Shown: positions 1,282-54,805 of the stretch, in pieces
Layout of the letters: every line of letters starts with the position of its first letter
How positions within the stretch are numbered: the first letter of the stretch is position 1
Assembly (NCBI GenBank): GCA_905178155.1
Contig: CAJINV010000009.1
Span: 1,041,415 to 1,105,414, forward strand
DNA length: 64,000 nucleotides
Direction of reading: 5' to 3'
Origin: Amoebophrya sp. A120
Lineage: Eukaryota > Protista > Dinoflagellata
Notes under the pieces: model-generated
What the model saw: the letters and a program-made list of their open reading frames with translations, nothing else
Told to the model about the DNA's origin: nothing
Databases searched by the model: none
Made by a program: the position numbers and the translations under genes

Positions 1282-1806
1282 TCATGACCCGACTGCAGAA
1301 GGCCGGGGGCTGGTTAGCGGGCTGCCGTCACCACCCTGCGTCGCGGCCCCTTCGACGTCGTGCTCCTCCATCGGCACCACGACGACTTCTATTGATTCCG
1401 GTGGCGCTCCCTGCACAGGCGGGAGGCTAGGCTCGTTTTGGGAGGCGCGTTGCGTGTTCATTTCGTCGATCTCGCTGTCCTGCGTCGCGACGTGACATAG
1501 GAACTCACTAATTGCCTGCGAGGGAGCATCGAAGGGGTTCGGAGCAACGTTCTGCGGATCCGATAGCAGCGCATCGATGCGACTGATGTCGATCAACTCG
1601 TGTAGGCCGTCATCGCTTGTACTGGCTCCCACCTCGTCCCGGAAACCTTCGTGGGATCTCGTGATTAATGCCGCGAGAGCCCGCGCTTCTTCGTCGTCAA
1701 CTGGCCGCTCTTCCCGCTCTTGGCGGGCCGGGGAGGGTGGAGGCCATTCGTCTTCCCCCAGGCCTTCTGGCCCTGATGCATCTTCCCCCAGGCCTTCGTC
1801 TTCCCC
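1282..1806 (-). other. Acidic, Pro-rich open frame (~175 aa) abutting the break point of a truncated TIR element. Either part of an inserted element or an alternative last exon of the giant gene.
   Basis: ORF 1282..1845 begins inside the TIR element. Its own sequence (GEDEGLGEDASGPEGLGEDEW...) starts where similarity to the element stops (~1807). No recognisable domain. Confidence 0.3.
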
Positions 1807-2023
1807 CATGCACATTTTGCATGACTCCTGATGTCTGTGATGCATGCCCTAGCATCACAGATTTTGTGAGGGCTTCCTGATGCCTATACCGCATGACAAA
1901 TGCTCTTTCCGTGTAGCAAAACTTGGACTCTCTTTGCTGCTCATGCAATACAGATTTTTTTAGAATCCAAAATCAGCATGACAAGTTGATTCTTCCAGAC
2001 CCAGACATTTTTACAATTGATAC
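1807..2023 (-). mobile_element. Truncated/interrupted third copy of the 264-bp TIR element (MITE/introner), in the opposite orientation to the other two
   Basis: The reverse complement begins GTATCAATTGTAAAAATGTCTGGGTCTGGAAGAAT and aligns colinearly with 4576-4793. The last ~46 bp, including the second TIR, are absent. Confidence 0.85.
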
Positions 2024-5000
2024 CACAACAGGACCAACGAAAGCAGTTGGGGTACGCCTCGCAGAAAAGTTCCTCGTTTCTGTGTATCAAATGCAAAAAT
2101 GTCTGGGTCTGGAAGAATGCAACTTGTCATGCTAAATCTGACGCATGCAAAAATCTGTGTTGCATGATTACCAAAAGCAGTGCAGTTTTAGCCAAGTCGG
2201 GAGGCAGTTTCTCATGCAGGATAGGCATGAGAAAGATCGCACAGAATCTGTCATGCTAGATCCTGCATTCCAGACCTCATGGGTCACGAAAAAGCTGCAT
2301 GACAAATCGCGCATTCTTCCAGACCCAGACATTTTTACATTTGGTACTGTGAAACACGTACTCAAACTCGTGCTTCAGCCTCGCTTCCTCCGGACTGTTC
2401 TTTACCTTCCCACCAAAGCCAAGATGTATGATCTCCGCGCTTTTCGCTAATTTCGTTCCCTCGTCCTCCGTTTTGCGGGCGGTGCTGGTGGAGGAGGTTC
2501 CGTCGCTTTTCTTGTTTTGATTTCCCTGCTTCTGCGCCACGGTTCCTTTCTTCCTGTTGTTGGTGAGAAAGCCGGAGGGAAAGAGCTCCGTTCCTCGCCC
2601 GGAAAAAAGAGCTTCTTCTACGATCGGGCAGACGCGCATCTGGAAATCCCAATCGATCAACTCTAGTCTACCCTCGTGGTCTTCGCAGTTCTCCGTTTGC
2701 AGGCGGACCATCTTGTCAATTTTCTGCTTCCCTTCCTTCCCCATCTCTTGCGGCAGCGAATGAACCTGAAGAAGGTACCACAGGAGGAACTTCTTGGCCT
2801 CTGCCTTCGTAAACACCTTCACCGGAATGTCAGGATCATCTTCAGTCGCTTTGGCTTTCATTTTCTTGCTTTGCCCTTTTGCAGTTCTATCTCCCTTGTG
2901 CAACGCCGCCGAGAAGTCCGGTTTTGCATCCTTTAATATCTTTCCCGCGTTAAGATGTTCTTGCCCCTGGCTGTTGAAATACTCCACAAGCTCCCGATCG
3001 TAACCCAATGCCCAATTAAACAGATTGCGGTGCGCCGGGTTGGTCTCGGTCGCCGCGGAGACCTTGTGCAGCATGATCGGCATCACGTCAGTCCAGTTTG
3101 TCATGGCGGTGTTCATCTGGCCCAAAAGATCGTAATTGTCGGCAATGGCTCGCATTAGACCGTCCGAGGGACAGTTCTCGTTGATTGGGTGGGGAATTCC
3201 ACATAAACTGCACTTCATCGGCTTCTTCCACCACGCGTCCAGGTTCTTTTTATTTGTTCCTTTCCCCTCCTTGTCTTTTTCCGCAATCTTATTTTCCGCC
3301 GTTTTACTTGCTGGGCCATCACGATATCCGATTTGGGTGCCGAACATGTACCGTGTCAAATTCGTCAGAAACTGCCGCCTTTCAATTGGTTTGTTGGGCG
3401 GCGGTGACGAACTTGTTACTGTCGTGCTTTTAGTACTATCGACGCTATCTTTACTTCCCGTAGGCTTGGTGGACGAGCTAGCGACTGTAGCAGGCGGAGA
3501 CGCAGGGATCTTGTTATACATGAGCCTGTAAATGTCTCGTAACAAGGTAGGAAGAAGCCTAACGCCGTCCTCCCGCGTGGGGAATGACGGATTTTGTTCC
3601 TCCTGGTCTTCATCTTCTTCGCGTAGTATTTCGTCAGCCTTATCGGGCGACGACACGCTACTGCACGCGCTGCTACCCGGCGTGGCGGTCAGCGCGGAAC
3701 ACCGTTCCTCAATGGCTTTGAAAAGACTGACCTTTTCGGGACTATCTTTCCTGGAGGTTTTTCCATTCTTCGGGTTCTGGGGTGCTGGGCTTGTTTTCTT
3801 CTGTGGCTGCGGATTTATTGGGTCGATCCTTGTGGTTGCTGCTACTCCAGCTGAAGCTGATGTGGGGCCTGGTGCTGAGGAATTATCTTTATCTGCTGTA
3901 CTTTTTTTTGCTCCATTTTGCGTATTACTACCGCTGCCTGTATTTTTGCCCCCGGAGCCCTGCTTTTTTTGTCCGCGGTTCTCCGAGGGGGTGCCGCCCG
4001 TTTTCTTGTCATTGTTTGTTTTCTCTTTCTTGTTTTGCGCCGTAGTCGACTTGGAAGTAGATGTTTTGCTGGCGTCTTGAGCAGCTCCACACAACGGCCC
4101 GGTACCTTCACGGAGCAACACCAGGTTCTCAGGTCGCGCCAATACCAGCTGCATTGTGCTAAGCGGATGCCCACAATAAACTCCCACATCGGGACGATCG
4201 GCGTTAATATCTGAACCTAACATATGATCCCCATTGCAACGTAAGACCCGAAGATCGCTGTCGAGGTGCACTCCGAGTCGCCCGGTTCGGCCCCCCTCTA
4301 TCATTGGCTCGACCCAGATGCCGTTGAGTTCAGTGCACACATCTTCTACCCGAGCCAAGACACCCTGGTAGTCGGCCGACTCGCACAGATGCACGGGGTA
4401 ATCGTAACTCTGACGACGTGCGTCTTCGTTTTCGCGGGATGCAGTAGTTGTACAGCCGCTGTCGCGTGTCTTCACGTCAACATCGGCTGACTCCAGAGGC
4501 GGGTAGTATCCGACGTCCGCTCTCATATGCAGGTAGGCGTTGGGCTTTCCATCCGTCGTCGTTCTGGGAGGCTGCGCATCAAATGTAAAAATGTCTGGGT
4601 CTGGAAGAATGCAACTTGTCATGCTGCATTTGGATTCCAAAAAAATCTGTCTTGCATGACTACCAAAAGGAATTTAATTTTTGCTACGCGGAGAGGGCAT
4701 TTGTCATGCGGAATAGGCATCAAGAAGCTCTGAAAAAATCTGTGATGCTAGGGCATGCATCACAGACATCAGGGCTCATGCAAAACGTGCATGACAAGTG
4801 TCAGAATGTTCCAGACCCAGACATTTTTACAGTTGATACTGCGCCGGCGCATTCTGGCACATTCCAAATCTTTCCGAAAAGTTCCCCGACAGTTCCTTCA
4901 AGCCCGCTGAGTCCAAAAGCCGGGGTAAGTCCGTAATCAAGTCCCGCAGCTTATCTGAGCTATGCCAAGGATAAAAGTCGTATCTCACTGTCGGTAAAAC

Positions 5001-8000
5001 TTTAGTCGAACAAGTGGACCCGGGTTTTTCGAGATGCCCACTGGATTCAGCTTTGTCGTCGTGAACGGCGGTCGTGCTGATGCGATTGCGAAATAGTTAT
5101 ATGCATTTCTTGGTGAAATCGCTGAATAATCAACGTCAAGTGGCTGCACTGGCAAAATAATTTCGCAGAAGAATAGGAGTTGCGATTGCTCAGAATCAGA
5201 TAGTAATGAAATACATGAAGTGCAGTTGATTGACTGAAGCCACAAAAAAAAAAACGGTACATTTGACCGGAGTAAAAGTACCCGGACTCGCCGTGGGTCT
5301 TCCGCGCGGCCATGAGGCGTAGTTCCTCAGCCCTGCCTGAAACAAAGCCGCACGCTAGCTCATCGCCGGTGGCTCGAGCTCCCTGGGGTCCGGCGGAAAA
5401 CTTGGAAGATCCATTCGGCGCCATGACGAGGCCATCGATAACGACAAGGGCATTTTTGAGCTTTTCCGGGAACACATTGCTGACAGAGCCCAAGTCCTTC
5501 CAGTCGGTGCAGCCGGTAATAGGCCGAGTGAGGCGGTACGTGTCGAAGGGGTTTTCGTTCTCGCGCTGCGCTGCTCCCTGACTCGAGCAGCTGTTCGATA
5601 TGCCCTGCGCAAACAACCGATTAACCGGAAAGGTGCTCAAGCGTCGCCCCCCGCTCCCGACCGAAAATCGATGCAGCATTTCGTACGTGCCCCGTTTGAG
5701 CGCTTCCATCCTTTCTCGCGCGACCGGCTCAGCCTCTTCCCCCTGCTCTGCTAGAATGTTCTTATACCAGTTGGAAATTTCCTGCAGCGTTTTCGCCGGC
5801 GTGCAGTCGACCTCTTTGCCGCTGGGCTCGCAGTTCGCCTTCGGGGGACATCCCTCCGCCACGGAAAGCAGGTACGACCAGGCGTCGATACCTCCCACGT
5901 CCGCGAAGAGCACGGCGAACTCTTCTAGCTCCTGCTGCACTTTGCAGCAGCTGCGGAAAACCGCGTTGCGCTTCACATGCACCCGGGCGTTGCGCGCCTG
6001 CGGTACCGTGTTCTCCAGTACATTGGCCTCCAGGGAAACGCCCTCGTTGTGCCAGAAATCCTTTGCAGACGGGCACTGCAGGTTCGCGACGTACTTGCTC
6101 TGAATTTGCTCCAGCTTTCCCAGGTGCTGCGTCAGGTTCTGCCAAACCCGTTCCGTCAGTTCGTCGTACCCGAACTGCTGCAAGTACTGCCACGAATTCC
6201 ACGGCGAGCACGCCGGGTGAAAGTAGTACTCTTGCGTGTACGGGCACTGGTGCCCGAGCTGCTGCAACACTTTCTCGGCGCGTCGGAGCCGGCGGCCGTA
6301 CAGCGTTTCCACGTCGAACTTGACCAGTCTCGGCATGCAAAACTGGTACAAAATGTTGGTCGTTTTCTGCCGCACGACGGAAGAAAAGTGTTTCGCTTTT
6401 TCCCACCACCGAGGCATGGCAGTCGTCAACAGCTTCCGTAGCGCGTCCTCTGACGAAGCTGCAATCTTCATTGAGCTACCGGAAAGTTCATCTGCAAAAT
6501 CACTCGCGGTCCAAGAGGAATGGCTGCTCGAAGCTGCTGTAATTCTGTTTCGATTCGTCCTACAACTGCCGGCAGCGTCGATTCGTGTGAACAGCAAGGT
6601 GTGCATGTCTTGCGGACCATCAGCGCCAGAGCAGGAAGATTCCTGTTCTTGATCTCGCGCAATGCAAGAAAAAACCGGCTTACATTCGTTTTTTGAAGCT
6701 GTTGCTGCATCGTTTTCACGTGCGCTCTTCTTACTCCTCTCACGCTTTGTTCGTCGACGTCCCCCCGCTGGGCATCCGTAGACCCACTCCGCAAAAGTTC
6801 GAAGACTTGGCCGCTTAGTGCTAAACACGCTCTCCTCGCCGTACTTTTTCACCGCGTCTTGTTTCGTAAATTGCTTGTGCTTCAGCAAGTTTGCCCGCGT
6901 GTACTTCACGACGAGGTGCGTCAGCAAGTTGCTCGCGGTGCTGGCGTTTTTATTGTTGTCTTCTGCGTTGTTTCCGGCTTCGTTACCCACTGCTGAGAAG
7001 TCGTCCTTGCTGTTGCGCCGGTTCTTCCCCCCGCCGCCGCCGCCGCCGGCGGTCGACGAACTGCTGTTTTTGTCTTCCTTCAGAATCTCCTTTACCTTGT
7101 CGGCGTACTTGGGATCGCTGGCCAAACTGCCCAACAGCGCGCTCTTGATATCCTTCTGCCGCTGCTGCACCGTCTTGGTGCCCCACTGCTTTTCCTTCGT
7201 TGCGATTTTGCTCTCCGTTTTCTGGATGACGCTGCTCTCCTCCTCTTCGGTGGACGTTTTCCAAGTGAAATCCATGAACCGGAACGGGGCCAGCGCCATG
7301 CCAACCTCCCGCTCCTCCACCTCCGGTAGGCATTTGGATAGCTTCTGTTCCGCGGTGTTATAGCACTTGGCGTCTTTTTCGCTACTGTGTCCCAGTTGAA
7401 ACGCCTGCAGCAGCTGGTCATTCAGTTCGACGTCCACGGCTGCCACCGGGGCGACCAAAAATTCGTCCGGCAAGAGCCTGCGTGCGACAATGAGCTTCAG
7501 GAAGAACAAAAAATCCACCATGAGGATCGACGACAATGGCGTGCCCTCGACGAAAAAACTGCGTAAAATCCCGTTCCCCAAGACGTAGTCGTCGTGAACG
7601 CGCAGCTTGTACGCGTCCACAATCCACTCGCACAGCTCAGCCAGCCGAAAGTCTTTCAACTGCAGAGCCGGGACTCTGGTGGCTTTTGGGGAAATTGTGG
7701 GAACTGCTGCAGTCGTGGGTGTAGTCGCTGACGTGCAAGATGATGGTCCCGCGCCAGTTGCTGGACCGGTGCTTTTATCCATCTGCTGGCGGTTCTTCTT
7801 GTTTTTGCCTTTTTTGTTTCCGGTCGTTACTGTGGTTGCCGCAGCCGCACCCGCAGCAGGCTTACTCTCTCCTACTTCGCTGCGTTCCTTCTCCGGTGGC
7901 GGTTCCTCGTCTTTCTCTATTTCGCGCTGAAAGAACTTGATCCAGCTTTCGCGCGTGAAGAAATCATGTGCAGAAGTGGTTCTGCTAGGCAGTCCTCCTC

Positions 8001-11000
8001 CTTGTGCACGGGACGACACATCAAAAGACGCCGGCTTCGTCGCGCCTGCAGTAGCCTTCGCACTGGTCGTAGCATCGTCTGCTTCACCAGTGCATCTCCG
8101 TGAACGAGTGATGCGACTCTTGTTTTGCCTAATATGTTCAGCCGCCATCTCGTCCAACCGGCGAAACCAGTGCTTCTTCAGCCTCAATTCGTCTTCTGCA
8201 GACAGCGTTTCGTCCTCGTAAATCGTTTGAGGAAACGTGTAACCGTACTTCGCTGTGTTCGGCGAACTGGCAGTGAATTTCAGTGGGTGGCAATCCAGAG
8301 CGCTCGCTCCGACTTCCTCGAACAGCGCAGGCTCCTCTAAATTCCACTCAGCAAGTGTGGCGAGCGCTGAGTAGAACGAGATGGCGCAGTAAACAGAGTG
8401 AGATTTTTTACTTCGTCCACAGCTTTCTTCAATTGCGCCGCTGTGTCGCTCGGAACTGCTGGAGACACCAGCGTCTGCCGGTGGACGAGTAGAATGATAA
8501 CCTTTCGTTTCTACTTCCACTTCATCATCAACGACCACGAGATTTTCGTCCTGAATCTTGTCAAGTCGCGCTCGGCACTGCGCGAAGCGAATGTCCGACC
8601 GCAGTTTTTGATCGCTCTCTACGGAGATCGTGGGCGTCTGCAGTTCCTTGCACAGAATCGAGCTCATCTCCGGCCGATCATTGGCGAGGCACCGGCGTAT
8701 CAGCCGCTCTTCCTTGCTGTTGGTGTTCAGGAGAAAACCCATGGTCTGAGACATGACGCCACCGCCGGGCTTTGACTTGGCGTGATCAAAGGAAGCCGTG
8801 GCCAAGACACGGTAGCATTTGCGAATGAAATCTAGGCGTATCCACAAATGCGCCGTCACCTTGGCAAACCTCGCTGTTCGCGTGCCGCACTCGCACACCG
8901 GGCAGAAACTACTGTTATTTCCAGTGCTTGCAGAGCGCGACTTTGTTTTGTTCAAGAACGCGGTGGAATTGTTGGCAGTAGTTGAGGTCGCAGCTCCACC
9001 TTCAATTGCGCTGCTGCTTGACGCCTGGCAACCTTCCGCCTGGGAAGCAGCAATTACTTGTTCCGCGGATGGAATGAGTTTTCGGTACAGATTCAGGTGC
9101 TGCTTCTTCTTGGCTTTCGTCGTTGACCTTCTCGATGCAGTGTGAGCTGCACCCAAACCAGGGCTGCGTGATGCGGGGTGAAATAGACTGCTGCCATACG
9201 TTGTGTCCGCACAAAGGCGGGTCAGGTACTCCTCTGCCTCCTGATGCATCCCCGCACCCGCTTCGATTAGCGTACAGAATGCAGCGACGGGCGCATTAAG
9301 CTTGTCAAAGAGGGTCGCTGCCTCTTTGCTAAGCCCCTTTTCGCGCATCAACCCGGCGGCAGCGACGAAGAAAAATAACCTGCTTTCCGGACCCATGCCA
9401 GTGGCGGTCGTGCGCAGCGTTGGGGTCGTTACATTCGCCTGTTCGGCTTTCCGAGGCAAGCACCACGAGGAATGCGACTGATCGCTGCTTGATCCACCAA
9501 AAAGACTGCTAAGCAGATCCGCAGGCAGCAGAGCGGAGTTCTGGTTCGTCCCTGTCTTGACCGTGAGCATTGGATCACAGCACGGGGAGTACAACGCGAG
9601 TGAGTCTTCATCACCTGCAGTCTCGATCCAACTAAAGTCGAAATTAACGGCGTCGAAACGCCGGAATTTTCCATCAGGTAGCTCTGCGTCCCTATCGCTT
9701 AGATCGAGTGGCTCTCCTTCTTTTCTGTTACAACTCGTGTCCACTGGAAGTTCTGCGGTCTTATTTCCAGCAACGACTAGTACTGGTTGTGTTAGCTGGC
9801 CCCCCAACAGCTCGGACAATCGGAGCCCTTGGCCGTAGTACTGCACGAGGTCCAGACAAAACCGGATCCTCCTGCCCAGCCCGGCGTCTTCGTGCAGATA
9901 AAAGTCCTGCCAGTGGTCTGCGCGGAACGGGTTACTCGTTCCAGTGGCAAAGCAACGCAGCTCGTCCTCGTCACGGCCACAATCCGGCGTATTGAAAAAA
10001 GCCGCCGCGGGTAGCAGACCGTGCAGCTGGTCGACCGCCTCAAAGTAGGTCTGGCTCATAGCGTTCTTTTGGTCTCTCTCCACTTCCAGCTTCTTGTTTT
10101 CCCTGAGCAGTCGTCGCCCCCGCGCGCAATGAATGCGCGCCAGCAAAGCCGTGTGGTACAGCATCCCCTCGCTGCCCGTGTCCCGAAGCAAGTCGAAGGC
10201 CTCGTCCCATTGAGGGTGGTGCTGCTTCAAGCACTGCAACGCCCGCTGTTCGCGGGCATACACACTGTTCCCCAGTGTTTCTGGATTCCCGAAATCATAC
10301 ACGTTCGGCGTGCGCCGGCAGCGGCGCTCCGTGGTGACGAAGTGGAGCACGGGGATAACGGAACTTCTACTCGCCCCTTCGTGCCGCAAGTGCTCGCCGA
10401 AAAAAGTGGAGCGCCCCTCCGCCGGAGGACCACCTTCATCATCGGTGGAGGACGGAGCCGCCATCAGCCGTCTCGCGTTTTCGACTGTGAAAATCTCCTC
10501 GGGCCAGTGCGCCGCGTGCAGGAAAGCGTGGCACATTCTTTCCTTCGCGGGGTCGCTGCATGTGGTCACTCCGTACCAGGCCTGGAGCGCCTGTAGGGCC
10601 ACACTGCGCTTCGGGTCGGCCTCCTCGTAAAACAGCAGTCGGCGCTTCGCCCGCGTAACCACACTGTACAACGTCTGCAGATCTAGCAACCAGTGCGAGT
10701 CGTAGTCTACCTCAGGAGAGGGCGGAGCTGCTGCCCCCTCTGTTCTTCTTGCCCCTCGAGTTCCATCAACATCGGAGGTGCTGCCCTGCTGATCAAATGC
10801 AGCACGTTCGCCATCGGGGTCTTCATTGAAGCCGGAAGTCGCAGGAGATGGTGAGACCACGGCTTGCTCGGGCGCTGATTTTGTTATCCTTATCAGCCTC
10901 GCCCAACATTTCTCGCTGCACCTGGGTGCGGCGCTCGACTTTTTTCGACTCGTTGCATCTTGGTCCACTTTGTTGTCGGTCCCGTAGGAATCGGTCGGGA

Positions 11001-27498: not shown

Positions 27499-29877
27499 CT
27501 AAGCGTCTTTTGTCGCGAGCAGTCGGCGGATGGCCTCTTGATTCGCCAAATTTCCGTCGGACACGTTCCTGACCGCAAAGATGGCGTTCTCCTTCAGCGT
27601 CGGCAGCACCGTGTCGGAGTAACAGAAAGACAGGAGCTTCATCAACTTGTCCTCTGGGGCAGTTCTGCCACGGGACATGTAGGTCGGTTTGGCGGGCACC
27701 AAAGGGGTAGAGCCCTGCTCCACCGGCATTTCCGGCCGGGGACCGAGAATTTCCTTCGCTACGGATTCTGGCACAACCTCAGTGAGCAGCAATTTTTGGT
27801 GCTCGTCATCACAGACCTGTTGATCCTGCTCTATTTCGCTCTTGGTTGCTGCCACCGTGTCAGGACGGCTTTGCACCTGCGTTACTCCCTCAGCGGTGCA
27901 GCTTCCCACTTGCTCGCGTAAGAGAAGCCCCGCGAGCCGCAGCACCACTGGGAGGTGAATTTGCTTCGCGTACCTCAGAAAGTCCTTGTAACCGCGGAAT
28001 TGCTCTTTCTTCCGCACCACGTCGCGCAGAGTCTTCTGCGTCTCCTCTTCGGACATGACGTACGGATTTTGCTGTTGGCCCTTCTCCCGTACTTCTGTTT
28101 CAGTTTCTTGTTCTTCGTCCTCCGGATTTTGAATAGTATGAGCACCTTGACCAGTACTTGAAGCCCTAGCGCCCTTGTTAACCGCTTCCAGCACTTCTGC
28201 GTCTCGCACCTGCAGCAGGCGGCCCAGGAGGTCGAAAATCGCTGCCTCCAGGCTGTTGAGCACCCTTCGCAGCTCCGCGCGGGTGCTAGGCGACACTTCC
28301 GGCCAGGCCCGCTCAAGATTCGCGATCACGCCGCAAAGGAATTCCAGCGCTTCGACTTCCAAGAAAGGTCGTGCTGGGGCTGTTTCCTCCGATGCGCCTA
28401 CTTGGAGGTCACCATTTGACTCCGCCGGAGTCTTGCTGCTCTGGTCCTCGGCCAGGCCAAGTTGCGGAAGCGCTACCATCGTTAGCCTGTCTACGACTGT
28501 TGCCTCCGCAACGTGTCGCAAGAATTGCAGTGCGTACAGCTTACTGCTCTCAACATCCTGAGAGGCTCGCTTTTCTTTGGACGATGACGCAACGGCACTG
28601 GAGCCGCCCCTTTCTTCTAGAAGACGTTCTTCCCCCTTCCCCAAGCACGCGATATCATCCGCGATTCTGGCGGGAAAGCCGTCTAGCGTCATCACTTGCC
28701 ACAGCCAAGTTGTCACGTGGGTCCATGTTGCACGGTCGTGCGCAATGTCGTGATCTGCTGGTAGGCCGAGAAAATGCCGCACCGCATCAGTCAGGGCTGG
28801 TGCGTATTCTCTGTCAGACAGGTCCTCGTGGCGTGTATAGATTGATGACTGCTGCAAAAGCATTGTAAGCACCTCAAGGTTTTCAAAGAAGAACTCCACG
28901 ACATCGTCGCAATCTGCGCCAATCCCGACATCTAAAATACGCTTTTGCTCGTACAAAACGGCGAAAGCCAAGACAGCAGCGGCGTGCTTCGGTTGAAGAA
29001 AACAAGCGTTTATGTCGTGATCGGACATTGTGCCTCTGCCTTCTTGCACGAAGTCTTGAAGAGGCAAGAGCTGCAGCACCCGGAAGAAGACATTCACAAA
29101 GTGGATCCCGCACCCGCGCACGAGGAAGCGCCGGTGGTCGTGTTCCAGGCTGCTGCTGATGTAGCAGTATGGCGGGGTCGGCCACGGCCGTTCTTGCTCT
29201 GCACGAGTCCTCGCAGCCACTGGGGACGAAGTAGTCGACGAAAACAAATGGTGGGCTAATTCCATCTGCATCCACCAAAACAGAAGGGCTTTCCGGGCTG
29301 GCAGATTCAAGCCTGATTGCAGTTCCGTTGAGTGTTCATTAGCGCGATCTTGCGAAAATGTTCCTGTATCAGTATCAAACGTTTCGCACCGTTCCAAGAA
29401 CAGCCGGAAACCGTTCCCGACAACAGAATCAAGCCTGTGAAAAAGTCTCTCTCCAATAGATCGCGCACCACCTGGTGAAGCTTCATGATCTGCTTCTGTT
29501 TTTGCTTGATCCCGATCCCGAGAGGCCGCGATCCGTGTTTGATAAGAAAACCCTTCGACGTCTCTCCTTATCTCCTCAGCGTTTTCCTGCACTTCCCTAG
29601 CCACGTTGGCTGCCAAGTTCCGTCCTAGGGTCGCCGCCTGCTGGTACTCCTCGGCTGAGCGCACTAGCTCACAGCTTGCGTTCTTTCTGTTGAAAACTTT
29701 TGCCAGCAAATCTTCTCTCGCCCAGACTAGTTCAATCTCTGCGGGATCTTTGGACCAGGCCAGTAGCGTGGCGACGGTCGGGTCGGCGGCTACCGACCGT
29801 TCCAGCTCGAGTGCAGCGGAATTGGGGCGCTGAGCGCCCTGCTCACAAGTGCCGGGAAGAGATGAATGTATCGCCAT
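27499..29877 (-). CDS. ATXN10: Ataxin-10 family (ARM-like) protein, 792 aa
   Basis: C-terminal LLSFCYSDTVLPTLKENAIFAVRNVSDGNLANQEAI matches the Ataxin-10/Ctr86 C-terminal signature (..D..NP.I.EWAI..IRNL.E.N..NQ). Upstream GVIANL also fits. Confidence 0.7.
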   Translation of the reverse strand: MAIHSSLPGTCEQGAQRPNSAALELERSVAADPTVATLLAWSKDPAEIELVWAREDLLAKVFNRKNASCELVRSAEEYQQAATLGRNLAANVAREVQENAEEIRRDVEGFSYQTRIAASRDRDQAKTEADHEASPGGARSIGERLFHRLDSVVGNGFRLFLERCETFDTDTGTFSQDRANEHSTELQSGLNLPARKALLFWWMQMELAHHLFSSTTSSPVAARTRAEQERPWPTPPYCYISSSLEHDHRRFLVRGCGIHFVNVFFRVLQLLPLQDFVQEGRGTMSDHDINACFLQPKHAAAVLAFAVLYEQKRILDVGIGADCDDVVEFFFENLEVLTMLLQQSSIYTRHEDLSDREYAPALTDAVRHFLGLPADHDIAHDRATWTHVTTWLWQVMTLDGFPARIADDIACLGKGEERLLEERGGSSAVASSSKEKRASQDVESSKLYALQFLRHVAEATVVDRLTMVALPQLGLAEDQSSKTPAESNGDLQVGASEETAPARPFLEVEALEFLCGVIANLERAWPEVSPSTRAELRRVLNSLEAAIFDLLGRLLQVRDAEVLEAVNKGARASSTGQGAHTIQNPEDEEQETETEVREKGQQQNPYVMSEEETQKTLRDVVRKKEQFRGYKDFLRYAKQIHLPVVLRLAGLLLREQVGSCTAEGVTQVQSRPDTVAATKSEIEQDQQVCDDEHQKLLLTEVVPESVAKEILGPRPEMPVEQGSTPLVPAKPTYMSRGRTAPEDKLMKLLSFCYSDTVLPTLKENAIFAVRNVSDGNLANQEAIRRLLATKDA

Positions 29878-30588
29878 GTTATTCCTTGCCAGTTTTGCTT
29901 AGTGATATTGTAGAAAGGAAGGAAAGCTCCAGCTCGTATTGGCAGAAGCAGAACGAAGGAATTGATAGATAAATAAAGCGAAATCACGCACACGTATGGG
30001 TGAGGTGAAGGGCGGAACCGGAAGGGGGGTCTCCTACAACTAGAATTACTTGGGCATAATCAATCGGGGGGTATCTGCGGAGTTAAGAACGAAAAGAGGC
30101 CCACTATCTAAACACGTTTGAAAACAAGCTTCTTGACCCAACATCGACCGGAGGATCTTACACGCAGATCCGCTAGCCATTTCTCTTCCCGTATCTGAAT
30201 TTCCATGGACCACATCGATCATGACAGCGAGCGATACAAGCTGCAAGATCATCACCTTAAGGCGTGCGATTGCGAATGCGATCCTTTCACTTTAGTATTT
30301 TCTTCGACCTTCGGATGATCCTTCCTTGGTGCATTTCATCTTGATCACTGCTGCATCAGAAGAAGTCGGTTTGGCAATCCTCAACGCGGTCAGCGGATTG
30401 GCTACGGTGGCGAGCCTCTACGAATGCGGACGTGAATGCGACTGCCGAAACGCAGCCAGACTAGCTCGTAAGATGCAGATCCTCATGATCATCATACAGA
30501 TATATTTTCGCTTGGCAGCATGAAGAGTGCGTTCGGCACTGCATGCGAAGTTATTGGGAAGATCATAGCGTTGTGGCTGACCACACCT

Positions 30589-34966: not shown

Positions 34967-36883
34967 TCATGATGCCAGAACGTCAATGCTTGCCCATGCT
35001 CGTTTTTCTGGGTCTTTTTCTAGCAAAGTCGTAAGACAATTGCGCAAAAACACTTTTTTCGTACCTGTTCTCGACACTTCCTCTGCTCCCAACATGTTTC
35101 CTTCCGCTGCAGAAGTCGTCTCGCTATCTTCCGCGTCGGATGTGGTCGTGCTGCTACTTGCCAGACCGCTACCATTTGATGCCAGGTAGTTCTTGAACCA
35201 GGCGAGTAGCATGCTGTCGATGTTCCCGTTGTAGTTCATGATGCGCAACTGCATGGCGAACGCCGCGGCGAAGTCATTGTCGAAGGGAAGAGACGCGAAG
35301 ATGAGCAGAAAAAACACAACACCGACCGACCACATGTCCCGCGCCCGGCCAGACATACCGAGTTCCGTGACGTCTGGTCCGAACGCCTCGGGCGGGCGGA
35401 AGGCCATGGTGCCCTCCGCACTCCAGATTTGATCGTCTTCGGGCTTCTCAAGCATCTCACAGCTATTGAAGTCGCAGATTTTAATCGAGACGCTCGCCAA
35501 CGTCGCTGCGGACGGCGATTCGTACTCGAAGAAAAGTTTTTGCAGCACCTTCTCGTCGTCTTTAGCCTTTGTGAGAAACAAGTCCATGATGAAATCAAAT
35601 TGTCCGTGTACGAGGATGTTCTGCGGCGCCAGGTCCTTGTGCATCACCCCGTTCAAGTGCAGGTACTTCACGCCGGATTGCATTGCGTGCAGCGCGAAGA
35701 GCGTCGTGGCCGCGCTGTACCGGTAGAATTCGTCTTTTCCCGGCTTCTGCTTGTCGAAGTCCCGGACGGCTTCCTTGGGCACGATCCACCGCTTCCTCGA
35801 ATTGCAAAAGTCCAGCAATGGGCCGTTGCGCACAAGCTCGAAGACGTGGTAGAAGCTACTGCACGCTGGATCGTCGATGACCTGACAGAAATAGTAATTT
35901 TGTATTCAGTTTTGAATGTTCTGCGAAGCGTGGTGGCTGACGTCTTTGTATTGATGGCAAGGCATAAGAGCTCAAACACTTCATCTTCGATCTCGATGCG
36001 CAAAGTTCAGTTCTGGCGATGAGATAGTTGTCTCCTCACTAAGTTGCCTTTCGGACTTGGTAAGCAGATTCTAACGGGTGTCATCATGACACATACAGGT
36101 ATCTAGGGAGGATCTTCTGGTCGTGTACGATCTTGGCTTGAGAAATAGCAAATCAGTTCTGGCGATGAGATAGTTGTCTCCTCACAAAGTTGCCTTTCGG
36201 ACTTGGTAAGCAGATTCTAACGGTTGTCATCATCTTTGATTCACAAGTATGATCTTATTCTCCGCTTTGTGTGCAGCAGTGATCGATATTTTTCTTCAAG
36301 ATCATGTCCAGACGACTCGTTACAAGGTAATTGTATGCACTAGGTTCCTGCCGTCAGCCTTGGTCTTGGAAGCTATGTCGAATTTGAGTTTCACTTCGTT
36401 TCTCTTTCTCAAAGCGTAATCTGCATGAATTTCTCAGCTGTAAAAATATTAATCAGTGAAGAATACCTCGACAAGTCTTGCTATGTTCGCCATGCCTGCG
36501 CTACTGCTGGCAGAGGCTCCAAATCCCGACGAAGAGACCTGCTCGCCCTGCAATAGTCGCTTCATCACTTTGACTTCGTAGCGCGCTCGGTCTGCGAGTG
36601 ACACATCTGTCGAGCAGGTGCCCTTTTTACCCCAGTACGGCATCTGCACTTCACTGGCCACCCGGCGATCGTAGATTTTCAACGCGAAGCTTTTTTGAAG
36701 CGTGGCGCTCCTGCAAACCCGAACCTTCGTGAACCGCCCACTTCCGATAATTCCCTCGTCAACAAGGATATCGTACCGGGAGTGTTCCGTCACGAGGGCA
36801 CCTGGAATCCCATCGTCTTTTAGCACCGAGGTCTTTGGTGGCTCCACAACCTCGACACGTGAGGCCTCAAGCACTGGCGACAT
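34967..36883 (-). CDS. Ser/Thr protein kinase, CAMKK-like. Exons 36883-36467 and 35881-34967.
   Basis: Motifs IIGSGRFTKV, FALKIY, NIARLVE|VIDDP..FYHVFELV.NGP, HKDLAPQNIL, KICDFN, EGTMAFRPPE, DMWSVGV and LLEKDPEKR. GT-AG intron 35882-36466 is phase 0. Confidence 0.9.
36007..36087 (-). ncRNA. Intronic C/D box snoRNA (copy 1), dual guide for LSU rRNA
   Basis: Sense strand: ATGATGA (C) ... TCTGCTTACCAA-GT-CCGA (D') ... GTGAGGA (C') ... CTCATCGCCAG-AA-CTGA (D). The guides are antisense to the conserved LSU segment UUGGUAAGCAGAACUGGCGAUG. Confidence 0.85.
36153..36233 (-). ncRNA. Intronic C/D box snoRNA (copy 2), paralogue of copy 1
   Basis: 81-nt near-identical duplicate (2 visible substitutions, both outside boxes and guides). 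Similarity runs exactly from the C box to the D box. Short CAAA/TTTG terminal stem. Confidence 0.85.
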
Positions 36884-48047: not shown

Positions 48048-51000
48048 TCATTTTTTTCTCCTTCCGCCCTTTTTCCCTTTTCCTTTCTTCCCGTTCTTGC
48101 TGTGTTTGCTTCCACCCGCATTCCCGTTTCCATGCTGACTGTCGGCGCAAGCAACAGCATCAGCAGCACCGGGGTGCAGGCCACCGTCGGAGCTGGTGGC
48201 AGGTGAGGACTCGAGCGTCGGTGTCGTCGTCGCCGGTGATGTTACCGCACCGCTCTGCCACTCCACCGGCGTTTCAAAGTCGAAATAGTTGACGGCGAAG
48301 AGCTCGTCGCCGTTAACCAGCAAGCCGCGGTTACTTGAACACCTGCCGGACAGGGCGTTTCCGGCAGAGGACGGCTTCTCCAGCAAAATTTCTACCTTGT
48401 CGATTTTCGTTTTATTTCCCGACGATTTTGTCTCGTTTTCCTTGTTACCCGACAGCTGTGTCAAGGCGTCGTAGTGGCTGTAGTAAATGCCGATCACGAA
48501 GGCTGCGGTCCCGTTCGGCAGCACGGGTGTTCTGTGGTTCATGTAGATCACCCGTTGGCCAAGAAAGAAGGAGGAGGCTTTGCGGCTCTGTTCGGGGCCT
48601 GGGTCTGTCACCGAATCTGCGGCTATATTCCTTCTAGACGGTAGCATTGGCGCGAGAAGCCCTATTATGCTTCCAGTAGGAAGAACTTTTTCGAGCGGAA
48701 GGTCAATGAAACTGGCGACGCATTCTTGCGAAGAGGTCGGAGAGGCTGCTGCTGAGGAGGTCGATGAGAAGCGTTTGTTCATCGCTCCTAACGCGCTTTT
48801 CATGACCTGCTCCACCATCTTCATCGTCTTGCTTGCCGCTGCATCTTGCTCTACGATCGTCCCTCCCACGACTTCCGGTGGGTCCACAATCTGCTTTGCG
48901 AAGCATTCTGCAAGCTGCTGGTGAGTTTGGGAGATAGCAGATTCTGACTCAGGTGCCACTGGAGAACCGTCGATGAAATTACTAGCAAAACTCCTGTCAA
49001 TCAACTGCTCCAACACCCGCACCACTTGCAAGGGAATCAGCTCGTGCCACGGCCCGACGAAGGGGAGCTTCATGTGCGGCTGCTCGTGCTGAATGAAATG
49101 CAACAGCTGCACCATTCGGTACTCGATGTGGTCCTTGGAAATGCTGTTCTTGTTACCCGAGGCTCCTCCATTTTTGCCGCCGTTCTTCCTGTTGTTTTTT
49201 CCACCCCCTTGCTGTTCCGCGGACAGTGCGTTGAAGGCTTGCGCCTGCAATTCCTCCTTCATCAATCTGGCGAGGTGCGGGCCGGAAAACAAATCCTTCA
49301 CGTTCACCGCGGTTCCCTTCAGCGCGCCCGGCCACAACGACCGGTCGTGCGTGTAGCTGGACATGTAGCCCTGCTCCACCGCGTCGTCCAGATAGGCCCA
49401 GATTTCCGGAAACTTCTGCTTGTGTCTACGCAGCAACTGCGCCACGACCGCCGCGTTGTAACGAATCTCCTTCAGAAGAGAATACTGGAGCGAAGACCAA
49501 GCATTTGTTCTGCTGCTCGACGATGGTGCAGCACCATTTTCTCCTTCGTTACAACTCGTATTGATGTTCCCGCCAGCAGCGGCTGCAGCTCCTGCGCCAC
49601 TTTGGTGCACCAACTTGGAAAACTTTTTCCGCGGCAGCGGACTGTGTAATTTTACTAAGCCCGGGATGAACTGCACAAAGGGATCCTTCCCAGAATCAAC
49701 CTCGCGACTCTTTGGAAACCAGAGCAGGTTGAGACCTACGTTCTCGACCTGGTCGTAGTTGATTTTCACGTGGAAATCCTGCAGAATGAGCAAGCAGCTG
49801 TCCACGTAAAACTCCTTGCCCAAATGCTGCTTCACCAAATCGATCGCCGACACCCAGTGCGGACAGGGAAAGTTCTGGGCCGTGGCGTAAATCAACTCCT
49901 GTACGCGGGATTCCAGAAACATGAGGTTCGCTGCTGTGCGTGTTCTTCGTAATACGGGTGTAGAAGTTGCGCCGGTACTAGTATTCGCCGTTTCTTTTGT
50001 ACTAGTGTCGAGGACTTCTGCAGGAAAACGAATGACATTTCCGTGTGCGAAGCCCGTCGAGCCATATGGTGGTAGTGGAAGTGGTTGCCTTTCACTTCCT
50101 CCATCTTGCGATGATATTGCCGCAAAAACGGGATTACTTGCTCTCGTTGCGGGAGGTCCGCGGAAGACATAAACGACCGGTGCGCCAGGACGCGTCTCCA
50201 GCAGCGGCCGGATTGGGGCTTTCATCAGCGAGGCCTCGTTTGTCGCAGTATGAAGTATCTTTGCGAATGAGTCGGTCTTCTGTCCTGCAACCTCCAGCAA
50301 GTGCAGAACGACCTGCTTGAAGCCGGCTGCACAAAGCTGCCCGCCTCCCGGTTCTTGAAGCTGCTTTTCACCGGCTGTCATTCGTAAAGAATCCACGATC
50401 ACATTGGCGCGCAGTCCGGAAAATTCTTGGTCTAAGGCTAGAATTTGTGTCTCCAGCTTCTTGAAATCGTCTGTCCTTTCCTCTTTCGTAGTGCTACACA
50501 TTGAATTCTTGCTCCCCGAATGGTTCACAGCTAAATTCGTTTTCATCCGGAGCCGACTGAGGTGTTCGGGCGGCACGGCGAACACGGTTGCGTACAACCG
50601 GACGCGTTTGTCCCCGAACGTGGGCTCCAGTGACCCGTCGGGCTCAAGGTAGCGCACGTAGCAGAACTTCAGCTTCTTATACCAGCTCTTTGAACTGGAC
50701 AACGCGACGCCGTGGCCCTGCAGGTACCGACCGACGTACTCGACTTCCTTGCGGAACAGGTTCTGCAGCGCTTGCTTCTCCTTGTTCGGCTTCTTTCTCG
50801 AGGGCTTGGAGGCGTCGACTTGTGATGATTCTTGCAGCTGTTGTGCATCATGAAGCTCAACGTCGCCCACAGCAAGGCCTTGCTCATCACTCCCGTTCCG
50901 ACCTTCCTTTTTCACTTCCGCCTTGTTGACTTCCGCTACGGTGGCTGCGTGGTCCGCGGGAAGATTGTCTGTAACGAAGTCTGCGTACTCGAAAACTTCG

Positions 51001-54000
51001 CACACCACACCCAAGCGCAAGTACGGGTAGTCCACATAGCACACTTTGTTCAGCAGGTTGCGCGAGTCCACCGCGGTCTGGTCGGAGGCGAGGTTATTTG
51101 GTGCCTTATTCGAAGCATCTTTCCCAGTGGCGGCGAGCACATCATTCGGCAGCCCGGCTCTGTCGGTGATGGGAGTGTTGTTATTTTTGTCCTTGTACAG
51201 GTTTTCGAGAATCAAATAGACCCCTGGATTGAACGCGGCGGAGTCGAAACAGTGAATGCCATGGTCCAACCACCACTGGTGGATCACCGCGTGGTGCACC
51301 GACGGCCACGGGTGCGGGGAACGCGCAAGCAAGGAGGCGCTCGCGCTGCCGCCAATGTCTCCTGTTGTCCCATACGCGTCAAGGAGGTCATCTCCCCGTG
51401 CTAGCGCAAGCTGTTTTCCCGGGTGCTCGCACGCGAAGCGACAAATTTTCCTTCCCGGTTCCGGTAACGAGACGTCTTCGAGTAGGTGTACCGGATTGCA
51501 GATTTGCAACTTCGATCTTGGTGCCGATTCCTCCAAATCATGTTCTTTTGCGTGTCCATTTCCATTTGCCGCAGAAGTGGGGCTAGCGGGTGCGTCGGAA
51601 CACAGCTCCATCACACGAGTTCTTACTAGGTCTATACACGCGGAAACCTCTGTGCTGCCTTTCCCGCAACCGCTTTCTCCCACCAGATCCACAAACTTTC
51701 GCAGTAGAGTCAGCACTGCAGCTCGACAAGGCTTGGATGAACTGGTGGTGGAGCCGACGGCATCAGTCATTTCCGCTGCAGCTGCAGGTTGACCTATTGC
51801 CTCTGATGTTTTCATCGCGCTCACCAACGCGGACTGCGTGACTGCACCGTCGTTCAGCTTGACGAAGCCCATTTCCGCTGCGCCTTCCCTGTTGAAGAAC
51901 GCGAACGCCGTGCCCTTGCGCTCATTTCTATGACGTTCCTCCTTGGTGAGTTTGTTCAGCCGTGGGTCGTCCGAAAACATGACTTTTTTGCAGACTTCGT
52001 CGAGTTTTTCGGGGTCAATCAGCGGTACCATGGTGATGCCGCCCCACGCCACCTTCACGCCGTCCATGTCGATTGCGAAGTGCGTGGGGTAGAACTCGTA
52101 CAGAGGCGAGACGCTTTTGTCGTCGCACATCAAATACTGCAGTCCGGGCGGCACGAGCTGCTTGGACGCCGCGGGCAGGACGGACAACAACTGCGTGAAG
52201 GGGGACACCGGTCCCTGCTTCGCCAGCTCCTCTGCGCTGCGGGTCTCGGGGAAATACAGGTGCTCGCAAAGGAAATCCTTATCCTGAAACCGCAAGCGCT
52301 GCCCGGCGTGGAGGTGGTCGATGCAACCGGGTTTACGGTTTGCGCTGCCGTCTGTAGTCACCACATCCTGATTGAAGAATTGCCCCAGAGGCCATTTGAG
52401 GTGTTGCTTGATCAGTTGTTCGCACTTCGCTGACTTTTCCTTCGTTGCTGCGTCATCTGCTTCGCTCGCGGTCGCCAGAACATCCGCATACCGCAAATTC
52501 CCACACAAGGGTAGCAAATTCGTGGACCTGAGCAGCAGATACCGATACATGTCCACCAGTAAAGGGCTGTGATACTCCGGGTAGAAGTAGCGCCAGCCGC
52601 AGTTGCTGTCCGGGCCGCGGAAATAGTAGTACATGACCCACTGCAGGCCCTCGAAGTACACCTCGCAAATCTCCCATATGCGCTGGCTGTTTGCGGATGC
52701 ACGTGCGGTACTGCCGTCGGCGTTGGTGATGGAGGTTTCGTCCTCGAACTCGTCCTCATCCCCCATGCCAAGCGCCCCCATGGCACCAGCCAGGTCAGCC
52801 AGGTCATCGTGTTTCGCTTCTGCATTTGGAACATTCTCATCCTCATCGTCGTCATCCCCAAGAAGCCCACCAAACGCTGCTGCGGTGGCGAAGAAGTCGT
52901 TTCCTGTGTCCGGCACTAAACTGTGGCTTTGCTCGGTCACAGTCGGCGTCAGGTCGCTTTCCACGCCAGTAGTGTTATTTGTCTTGCCTGCCGACCCAGT
53001 GCCCAGCAGGTTGACAGCAGCTCCCGCGGCAGATCCTCGTTGGTCTGCTTTATTACCTCCGACAACCGCGCCGGCTGTTGCTGCGCCGGTAATCACTGAG
53101 CTGCTATCCGCCCCCAACACTGCGTTTCGTAGCACATCTCTGTAAGACCCCCCCGCTGTCACATCGTCGAATTCAAAAGTTTCCAAGAAGTTACTCGCAC
53201 TGCTGACCTGCTTGTACAGCTTTGCCTTCCACTTACTAGCTTCCAAATGCTTTTCCTCGTAGAAGTTCTTCAGAAAATACTCGCACTCGATTTTCTTGCC
53301 GAACTTCATCCAGTACCACTTCTGCCTTATCGCGGACAGGTCGTCGCACCTCATGCGATTCACGGCCGGCATCTGCGGTGGGGGCTTGTTGGGTATGTCA
53401 GTCGGTCCGCAGATTGCCTGCATGCCGAGGTCGAAAGTGCCGCCTTTCTTCAACACGGTGTCGTTCATCACTTGGATTTCCAGGGGCGTGCAAATGTTCA
53501 AAAACTTCGTCAAATTTGGCCAGTGGATCTTGCCCGCCTGATACGTCAGGTAAAACTCGTCCTTCAAATGTGGTGGAACTTGTAATGCTTGTGAAGAAGA
53601 TGAAGATGCAGCTGCATTTGCAGCGGCCAGTTGTTCCTTCTGATCCTCGTCCTTCGTCGAGATGTCCTCATCCGTCGGCAAGTAGACCATCAGGTACACT
53701 TTGTAGGCGGCGAACATCTTTCCAAATTCCTTCACGTCCAGAAACGGCAGGTGCGGAAGGAAATCGTTCCCCAGCAGCGCCCAAATCAAAATCAAGTCGT
53801 CGATCACGCGGTTCAGGTCGAAGTACTTTTTGCAATCGTCGAGTTTGAATTCCAGCTCTAGGTATTCCCTGAGAAGTTGTAAATGCAGCAGCTGAAACGT
53901 GGGCTCTGCCAGCATGGATCTTTTCAAGTGCGGCTTCGTCTCTGTCCGGCTGAAGTTCACCTCCTCGCGGAGCAGGGAGAAGTGCGGCTCGTGGGACACT

Positions 54001-54805
54001 AGGCTAAGCATGATCAAGTCGGCGTCGAGGCCGTAGAAGCAGTGCCGGGTGTGCGGATTGAAATTTTTGCTCAAGGCCAGCTTCGCCTTCCGGATGTAGT
54101 CGATCATCTTGTGCTCGCCCTCCCCGGGCTCGTCCGCGCCCGAAAAAATGATCAAGGGGATCGACTCCCACAGGGGATCGGTCGCTTTTTGCCGCTGGAT
54201 ATTCGCCCTGAGAGTGTTGTTCAGTTTCTCCATGAAGGGCGTGCCCGGAGTGATGGCGTTGCGGTCGAAGCGAAATTTGTTTTTCTTAGCCGTATCGATC
54301 GGGTTTGCCGCCATCTGATTCAATCGTTCCATCTCCTCCTCGCGCTTCAGTGCGGCTTCCTTCGCGACACGGCTGTCGTTGGCGGAGCGAAACCGCCGGG
54401 ACCGCTGCTGGTTCATCTTCGCGCGGGGGGCAACACCGTCGAGAGCCATGTACCTGGGGTCGAGGAGAGAAACACAAATTTAAGGACAAAGGCAGAACCA
54501 GAAAACTTCAGAAGGACTTGTATTTATAGCATTTTCATTTGCGATGTTGGAAAAAATGCAACAGGAGAAGAAAACTTGCAATACAGGAGCTCTTTCGGCT
54601 GGATGATCGCAACCAGGTAGCGGATGTACTCCCAGGCCCGTTCTATCATGTCTTCTTCGGACACGGCTTCGCCAATGGTGTTGTGCACGATGCCGTTCAT
54701 ATCCAGGTAAAAGTTGTCGAACTCGGGAATCATGCTCTTCTGTACCTTCTCGTTGATGAGCGGGTACCGCTCGGAGAGCTTTCGAAAAAACCGTGGAACG
54801 CCCAT
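48048..54805 (-). CDS. XRN1: 5'-3' exoribonuclease 1 (~2,210 aa), exons 54805-54585 and 54453-48048
   Basis: MGVPRFFR, FDNFYLDMNGIVH, LYMALDGVAPRAKMNQQRSRRF, NAITPGTPFM, PGEGEHK, HCFYGLDADLIMLSL, GNDFLPHLP, EGLQWVMYYY, PFTQLLSVLP. The C-terminal SH3-like block (LGQRVIY...AGNALSGRC) favours XRN1 over XRN2. Confidence 0.95.

Follow-up and report, generated by a model that had tools for sequence, protein, structure and literature searches.

Three members of one family of terminal inverted repeat (TIR) elements interrupt a single minus-strand gene of Amoebophrya sp. A120, two of them in the same orientation and the third inverted, and they behave as introns. The middle element, copy B, is skipped exactly over 267 nt in four of four RNA runs, all from one sample, with a joint from 2079 to 2347 that carries 5 ambiguous letters. 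An earlier note on this DNA had proposed such behaviour from the letters of the window, the whole stretch of 64,000 nucleotides analysed here, and the RNA bears it out. The gene is read from high to low coordinates, and its parts are as follows.

5282..5424, minus strand: first annotated exon of CAD7959575.1, in a frame that is open upstream to 12483
5077..5281, minus strand: canonical GT-AG intron of 205 nt in the same gene, with an RNA joint 5076 to 5282 in run X3 only
4839..5076, minus strand: coding exon upstream of copy A, from RNA contigs (X3, X6) and protein alignment
4839..4843, plus strand: right target site duplication (TSD) of copy A, CTGCG, 5 bp
4577..4838, no strand assigned: copy A, a 262-bp non-autonomous TIR element and non-canonical intron
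4572..4576, plus strand: left TSD of copy A, CTGCG, 5 bp
2347..4571, minus strand: large coding exon of ~741 codons, partly under RNA contigs
2347..2351, plus strand: right TSD of copy B, CTGTG, 5 bp
2085..2346, no strand assigned: copy B, a 262-bp TIR element oriented as copy A
2080..2084, plus strand: left TSD of copy B, CTGTG, 5 bp
2023..2079, minus strand: micro-exon of 57 nt between B and C, from RNA pieces in X3-X6, with edges that shift by up to 5 nt
2023..2027, within the micro-exon: predicted TSD copy of copy C
1807..2022, no strand assigned: 216 bp of copy C, which lies in the opposite orientation to A and B

The gene corresponds to CAD7959575.1 (P0121, GSA120T00004086001), a protein of 1147 aa from Amoebophrya sp. 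A120 with 100% identity over every window exon. It was the one protein matched, at 100%, by a 200-aa piece of the large exon. The alignment runs over 5424-5282, 5075-4839 and 4577-2349 and then the micro-exon (residues ~869-888). This public model is already joined across A, B and C; as an annotation, it is no independent proof of splicing. Removal of an element together with one TSD (267 nt) does restore the frame, as had been noted earlier, and yields a single open frame with 3240 stop-free codons over four exons. By itself this does not speak for splicing, because the same is true of every insertion that duplicates its target site within coding DNA. The large exon (2349-4571) matched no Pfam family, and a search of 1.84 billion representatives returned no homologue of the host protein but itself, and hence no orthologue with empty sites. 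The last exon of CAD7959575.1 (259 aa) was found neither in the window nor in ~140 loci of assembly JACKZZ01. On the upstream side, a minus-strand frame of 2478 codons (5047-12483, no Pfam match) joins the first exon in frame via the GT-AG intron, and RNA reaches at least 5497, upstream of the public model start at 5424. The true host protein may comprise ~3500 aa.

The transcript evidence comes from runs X3-X6, which represent one sample (S2) and were read as assembled contigs only, a form in which rare variants are dropped. No run covering the locus is recorded as RNA, and X3 was assigned from its GT-AG joint: as an internal control, it skips the 205-nt intron at 5077-5281, and it therefore holds spliced RNA. 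Run X1 (sample S1) was taken as DNA-like from its flat depth of 21-30 over exons, introns and flanks. Unbroken contigs of 781-1791 nt span both the B joint and the edge of C with no difference from the window. In all four RNA runs the contigs exit the window at the border of the inverted copy, position 2023, and continue for 67-1042 nt. The 30 letters past 2023 are absent from the window; translated by hand they give GQIFRSETER, the residues that follow WSCC in CAD7959575.1, so the near end of C is used as an in-frame exon boundary. As to copy A, no RNA contig in X3-X6 bridges its joint, and two contigs end at 4839 with overhangs of 6 and 16 letters that do not align. These ends fit an excision of copy A, which is likely to be removed too. 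The check for 267-nt gaps in RNA that the earlier note had proposed thus came out positive for copy B, in four of four runs of one sample, and left copy A unbridged. Its question whether the inverted copy is excised as well is largely answered: the RNA leaves at the near TIR edge of C in frame, and the far end is out of view. No match to the junction of C with the micro-exon was found in metagenome contigs, and the raw RNA run X15, which bears the same species label, contributed 33 partial reads, all on the element only.

Two readings would deny that the gap in the transcript arises by splicing. The 267 nt could be missing at the DNA level, either because the RNA sample carries an allele with an empty site or through excision at one life stage in the manner of internal eliminated sequences. 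This has in its favour that the RNA runs (S2) and the DNA-like run (S1) are different samples. However, the RNA contigs match the window without differences, B and C are skipped together on the same molecules, and a 2285-nt contig of X1 (2319-4603) passes unbroken from the TIR of B through the exon into the TIR of A with 0 differences. Moreover, excised copies would be lost permanently in a cell that has no separate germline nucleus, and we consider an origin at the DNA level very improbable. Slighter still is the chance that the gene is merely disrupted by miniature inverted-repeat transposable elements (MITEs). The cut end of copy C and the absence of the last exon from the window are what such a disruption would leave, but the exact skip of B in all four runs refutes it for that copy, and the in-frame run past C and the intact public model of 1147 aa also speak against it.

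The copies themselves had been described earlier as 264-bp elements with 3-bp duplications (TGC, TGT) and TIRs of ~50 bp that start GTATC/GCATC. The length of 264 nt is correct as then delimited, whereas the element proper, TAT...ATA, measures 262 bp. Likewise, the TIRs are near-perfect over ~35 nt and do extend to ~48-50 nt at 84-88%, while their supposed terminal G and C are part of the target site. The 3-bp duplications did not survive, since the TSD is really 5 bp, CTGCG for A and CTGTG for B. The two still differ, and A and B therefore represent separate insertion events, as had been concluded. The excised length is also unaffected, for a 262-bp element plus one 5-bp TSD gives the same 267 nt. 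The TIRs of the window copies start with TAT + 7 nt + AAA, with one substitution in TAT at one end of A and at one end of B. In copy A the plus-strand end is CAT where the family has TAT, and the transcript-side end is ATG; in copy B the 5' end is TAC.

Alignment of A with B shows identity in 205 of 262 columns (~77%). Copy C, the partial inverted element that the earlier note had correctly placed beyond the 57-nt micro-exon, equals family positions 1-217 and is over these positions 88% identical to A and 75% to B; its far TIR is absent from the window. The description as three copies of one transposon thus stands for a common family, although A and B are related subfamilies rather than near-identical copies. 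Stop codons occur three to five times in every frame of A and B, in line with the in-frame stop seen earlier in each copy. The elements are short, with TIRs, a TSD of fixed length and no coding capacity, as is typical of MITEs. On the transcribed (minus) strand, A and B each fold as a single long stem that brings the ends together (z = -10.8 for A and -11.9 for B; 0 of 200 shuffles each). No fourth complete copy of the family is present in the 64-kb window.

A scan with the TIR pattern returned at least 139 loci, all in assembly JACKZZ01, where ~450 stretches are estimated; viral contigs gave 0 matches, and a lone 20-nt match in a bacterial metagenome-assembled genome was taken as chance. The best JACKZZ01 matches to the window copies reach 92-97%. 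The family is thus repeated genome-wide, and the depth of the DNA-like run X1 piles up on the elements, with 14,204 of its 259,971 contigs on this stretch, a figure that is not a copy number. Among 142 distinct complete relatives, a TAT start was found in 139 and an ATA end in 138, while the positions read earlier as terminal G and C showed all 16 base combinations; because they vary so freely, these positions belong to the target site and not to the TIR. An exact 5-bp repeat surrounds the TAT..ATA core in 121 of the 142 relatives, and a repeat with one mismatch in 13 more. Exact repeats of other lengths are rare (3 bp in 2/142, 4 bp in 2/142 and 6 bp in 0/142). These relatives rule out the parse into a 264-bp element with a 3-bp TSD. 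A C-NNN-G target preference and a carried-over flanking base were likewise discarded, the bases concerned belonging to a 5-bp TSD whose sequence is free. The 5-bp rule is common to more than one family, since JACKZZ01 also contains inverted-repeat elements with a 5-bp TSD and other ends, namely TATCCT, TAAAAACG, CAAAAACG and TTGGTT (L022:4311-4767, L009:3084-3344, L058:973-1233 and L038:955-1277).

For the analysis of host context we used 117 elements out of 260, a set pre-selected to have TAT..ATA ends and an exact 5-bp repeat. In this set, each of the four bases occurs frequently at each TSD position. A GT donor created by a terminal G of the TSD, as in all three window copies, was considered as a signal and dropped as not general, this G being present in 33 of the 117. 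A register with GT/GC-AG is possible in 9 of 117 relatives with a callable host strand. Element lengths modulo 3 are random (42/33/42), and retention would thus break the frame in most. After precise removal in silico, the frame was open and coding-like at 117 of 212 sites, as compared to 46-57 of 212 for four wrong-removal controls. In coding sequence, 18 relatives are oriented like A and B and 16 like C, a count based on 34 of the 117 elements, the remaining 83 being other subfamilies. A smaller strand-clear set of 24 elements gave 14 versus 10; it comes from an earlier TSD and strand count in which 92 of 134 elements had long flanks. On the orientation that the earlier note had suggested examining, the relatives in JACKZZ01 lie in coding sequence both ways. 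Strand was called with a codon model that had ten window ORFs as its training set. Since roughly 50 of the 212 wrong-removal controls also pass this model, part of the strand calls are wrong.

The cut end of copy C deserves separate treatment, with one further feature.

1774..1806, no strand assigned: discordant join left of copy C, where the X1 contig departs at 1773

A 12,678-nt contig of X1 follows 1200-1773 with 2 differences and then continues for ~11.9 kb off the window, so that the DNA-like run gives no support for the cut end at 1807. The RNA runs X3 and X4 have zero depth on 1200-1763. A 188-codon minus-strand open frame at 1282-1848 resembles another gene's 3' end, and a short tandem repeat occupies 1750-1806. 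Short-read scaffolds, with their gaps closed, underlie the A120 assembly, according to the part of PMC7789003 covered. The truncation of C, seen earlier as a property of the copy, is accurate in that only 216 bp are in the window, and it is likely an assembly mis-join. Alternatively, there may be a real multi-kb insertion inside C, which would then be a multi-kb intron. Segment 1-1806 is unrelated to the transcript's next exon and contains a repeat spaced by 120 nt (53-258) and short tandem repeats.

GT-AG (or GC-AG) is absent in all six equivalent cut registers of A and B. With an exact 5-bp TSD of free sequence, insertion in both orientations and random length modulo 3, the signal is narrowed to the TIRs; coding sites in both orientations and unconstrained TSDs make it highly probable that the removal signal lies there. 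If the relatives splice as copy B does, it must sit in the symmetric ends. How the ends are read is less clear, because any TIR element folds and TIR ends look alike both ways, so that neither folding nor orientation independence separates a paired from a linear signal. In the TIR stems of the 117 elements, G.U pairs on the sense strand do not exceed A.C (129 versus 113, p = 0.33), so that selection for a helix in the RNA is not apparent, and TIR positions 4-7 are Watson-Crick paired in only 116-197 of 260 elements. The scheme we favour, to which we grant about an even chance, is that TIR pairing matters and that the spliceosome catalyses removal; excision directed by the TIR hairpin had been raised as a possibility in the earlier note. 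The TIRs would pair in the pre-mRNA and draw both TSD copies together; the cut site would be set by its distance to the stem base, with no role for dinucleotides, and orientation and target sequence would then be irrelevant; and the chemistry would be performed by a spliceosome without detectable U1. This scheme is favoured because A120 has U2, U4, U6 and almost the full set of spliceosomal proteins, whereas U1 was not detected, in the part of PMC7789003 covered. Against it, one intron end or both must consist of arbitrary sequence, a poor fit for a spliceosome.

We rank this stem-guided spliceosome above two competitors. Guidance by the TIR stem could instead serve an endonuclease and a ligase that act independently of the spliceosome, as suspected for the nonconventional introns of euglenids. 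The lack of a dinucleotide consensus in any register and the free TSD sequence would suit such enzymes, as would the failure to detect U1 (PMC7789003, in part) and the report that euglenid TIR/TSD introns leave as circles with no lariats (PMC11282704, in part). Yet no candidate enzyme was seen, a GT-AG intron occurs in the same gene next to a nearly complete spliceosome, the stem shows no G.U excess, and the non-canonical TIR introns of Fritillaria are reported to be spliceosomal in the portion of PMC11282704 covered; we therefore regard this system as possible but rather unlikely. Less probable again is a protein or small RNA that recognises the linear TIR, namely the first 30 nt and, at the 3' end, their complement, and then cuts a set number of nucleotides away without any pairing. 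The near-invariant TAT and ATA (139/142 and 138/142 relatives), the loose pairing at positions 4-7 and the level of G.U would be natural for such a reader, and the symmetry of the ends would let it work in both orientations. However, B is spliced with a 5' TAC and the transcript shows ATG at the end of A, and the 1954 families of introner elements in A120, with other inverted repeat motifs in A25 (PMC7789003, in part), would be hard for one reader to serve.

The window elements are, with near certainty, A120 introners of a known class, as the earlier note had already named them: the A120 gene model matches at 100%, the ends read TAT-N7-AAA, the repeats are 5 bp and the intron ends are non-canonical. 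In the passages covered, Farhat et al. 2021 (PMC7789003) describe A120 introner elements, with 29,850 repeated introns and a hairpin model; the inverted repeats of these elements start TAT + 7 nt + AAA and their direct repeats measure 3-5 nt, 5 bp in the legend of Fig. S19. The introner elements of A120 are counted as 1954 families, A25 has different inverted repeat motifs, and the non-canonical introns of A120 have a mean length of 240 nt. The window copies share with them the organism, gene model, inverted repeat motif, repeats, ends and hairpin, and a size near the mean, and those passages hold no difference of kind. The element class, and these three introns in the public gene model, are therefore already on record, and the finding itself is not new. 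Orientation independence and a TSD fixed at 5 bp on a TAT..ATA core are unstated in the same passages; for orientation independence, a thin search found no statement in the literature, which is no proof of unpublished status.

Comparable elements are known in A120 and elsewhere, as far as the parts of the sources covered go. The A120 TIR families fam12, fam100 and fam48 of Gozashti et al. 2025 (PMC12130899) measure 250-280 bp with TIRs of 30-70 nt and, like the window copies, have mostly non-canonical ends, a comparison by description only. Nonconventional introns of euglenids (PMC11282704) likewise have a TIR stem, TSD-like junction repeats, no GT-AG and a proposed MITE origin; they differ in lineage, in their TIR motif CAG/CTG and in reported circular excision products. 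Introners of Aureococcus, Micromonas and Polarella (PMC9860276, PMC11282704) are also non-autonomous, have TIRs and TSDs and create introns. In contrast to A120 copies A and B, however, these carry or co-opt GT/GC and AG, for which 9 of the 117 relatives have a register; with no GT/GC-AG in A or B, the window elements fall outside the canonical spliceosomal introners of the Aureococcus/Polarella type. Amoebophrya ex Karlodinium and AT5 have GT-AG introns (PMC12005148, in part).

The closest correspondence for mobilisation is A120 fam38, listed in the portion of PMC12130899 covered as '5-bp TSD, TA/TA Termini' and Ginger, with integrase-like homology noted in the text. The 5-bp TSD and TA..TA termini of the window family match this row, while fam38 itself is ~808 bp long with remnants of an integrase-like ORF and the window copies have 262 bp and no coding capacity. 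From the fixed TSD and these ends, we infer that the elements may be mobilised in trans, by a DDE transposase of integrase-like type whose staggered cut spans 5 bp. TSD-bounded long copies in JACKZZ01 span 457-1031 bp. Four long members of 481-1031 bp (L056:3998-5028, L060:3998-4969, L041:3862-4492 and L040:571-1051) have unique interiors, and 40 ORFs from seven longer stretches gave no Pfam match at all, a transposase domain included. Longer copies with the same TIRs, in which the earlier note had suggested looking for a transposase, do exist, up to 1031 bp, without a Pfam match in these ORFs. Farhat et al. 2021 also found no transposase in A120, by the passages of PMC7789003 covered.

The rest of the window, 5500-64000, contains no other family member and no clear element with TIRs and a 5-bp TSD, although one element every few kb would be expected from the total published for A120. 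It consists of very long co-oriented frames on the minus strand. An XRN1-type exoribonuclease of 2143 codons (48051-54479), a protein kinase (34970-35905) and a protein with an ataxin-10 domain (27502-29898) are encoded on this strand. Nested inverted repeats occupy an intergenic segment at 15284-15578, with 29-nt arms at 15284-15378 and perfect 15-nt arms at 15326-15578 and no evident TSD. Two 81-nt copies, 98% alike, lie 146 nt apart at 36007-36233.

The locus is useful for testing by what route tens of thousands of introns without splice signals are removed in A120, as one transcript combines a GT-AG intron, two TIR introns of the same sense, an inverted one and a 57-nt micro-exon. It is conceivable, if doubtful, that A120 excises from RNA, blind to sequence and by a non-spliceosomal route, any TIR stem with a 5-nt repeat, in either orientation and with any interior. 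If true, such excision would render a whole transposon class harmless in exons.
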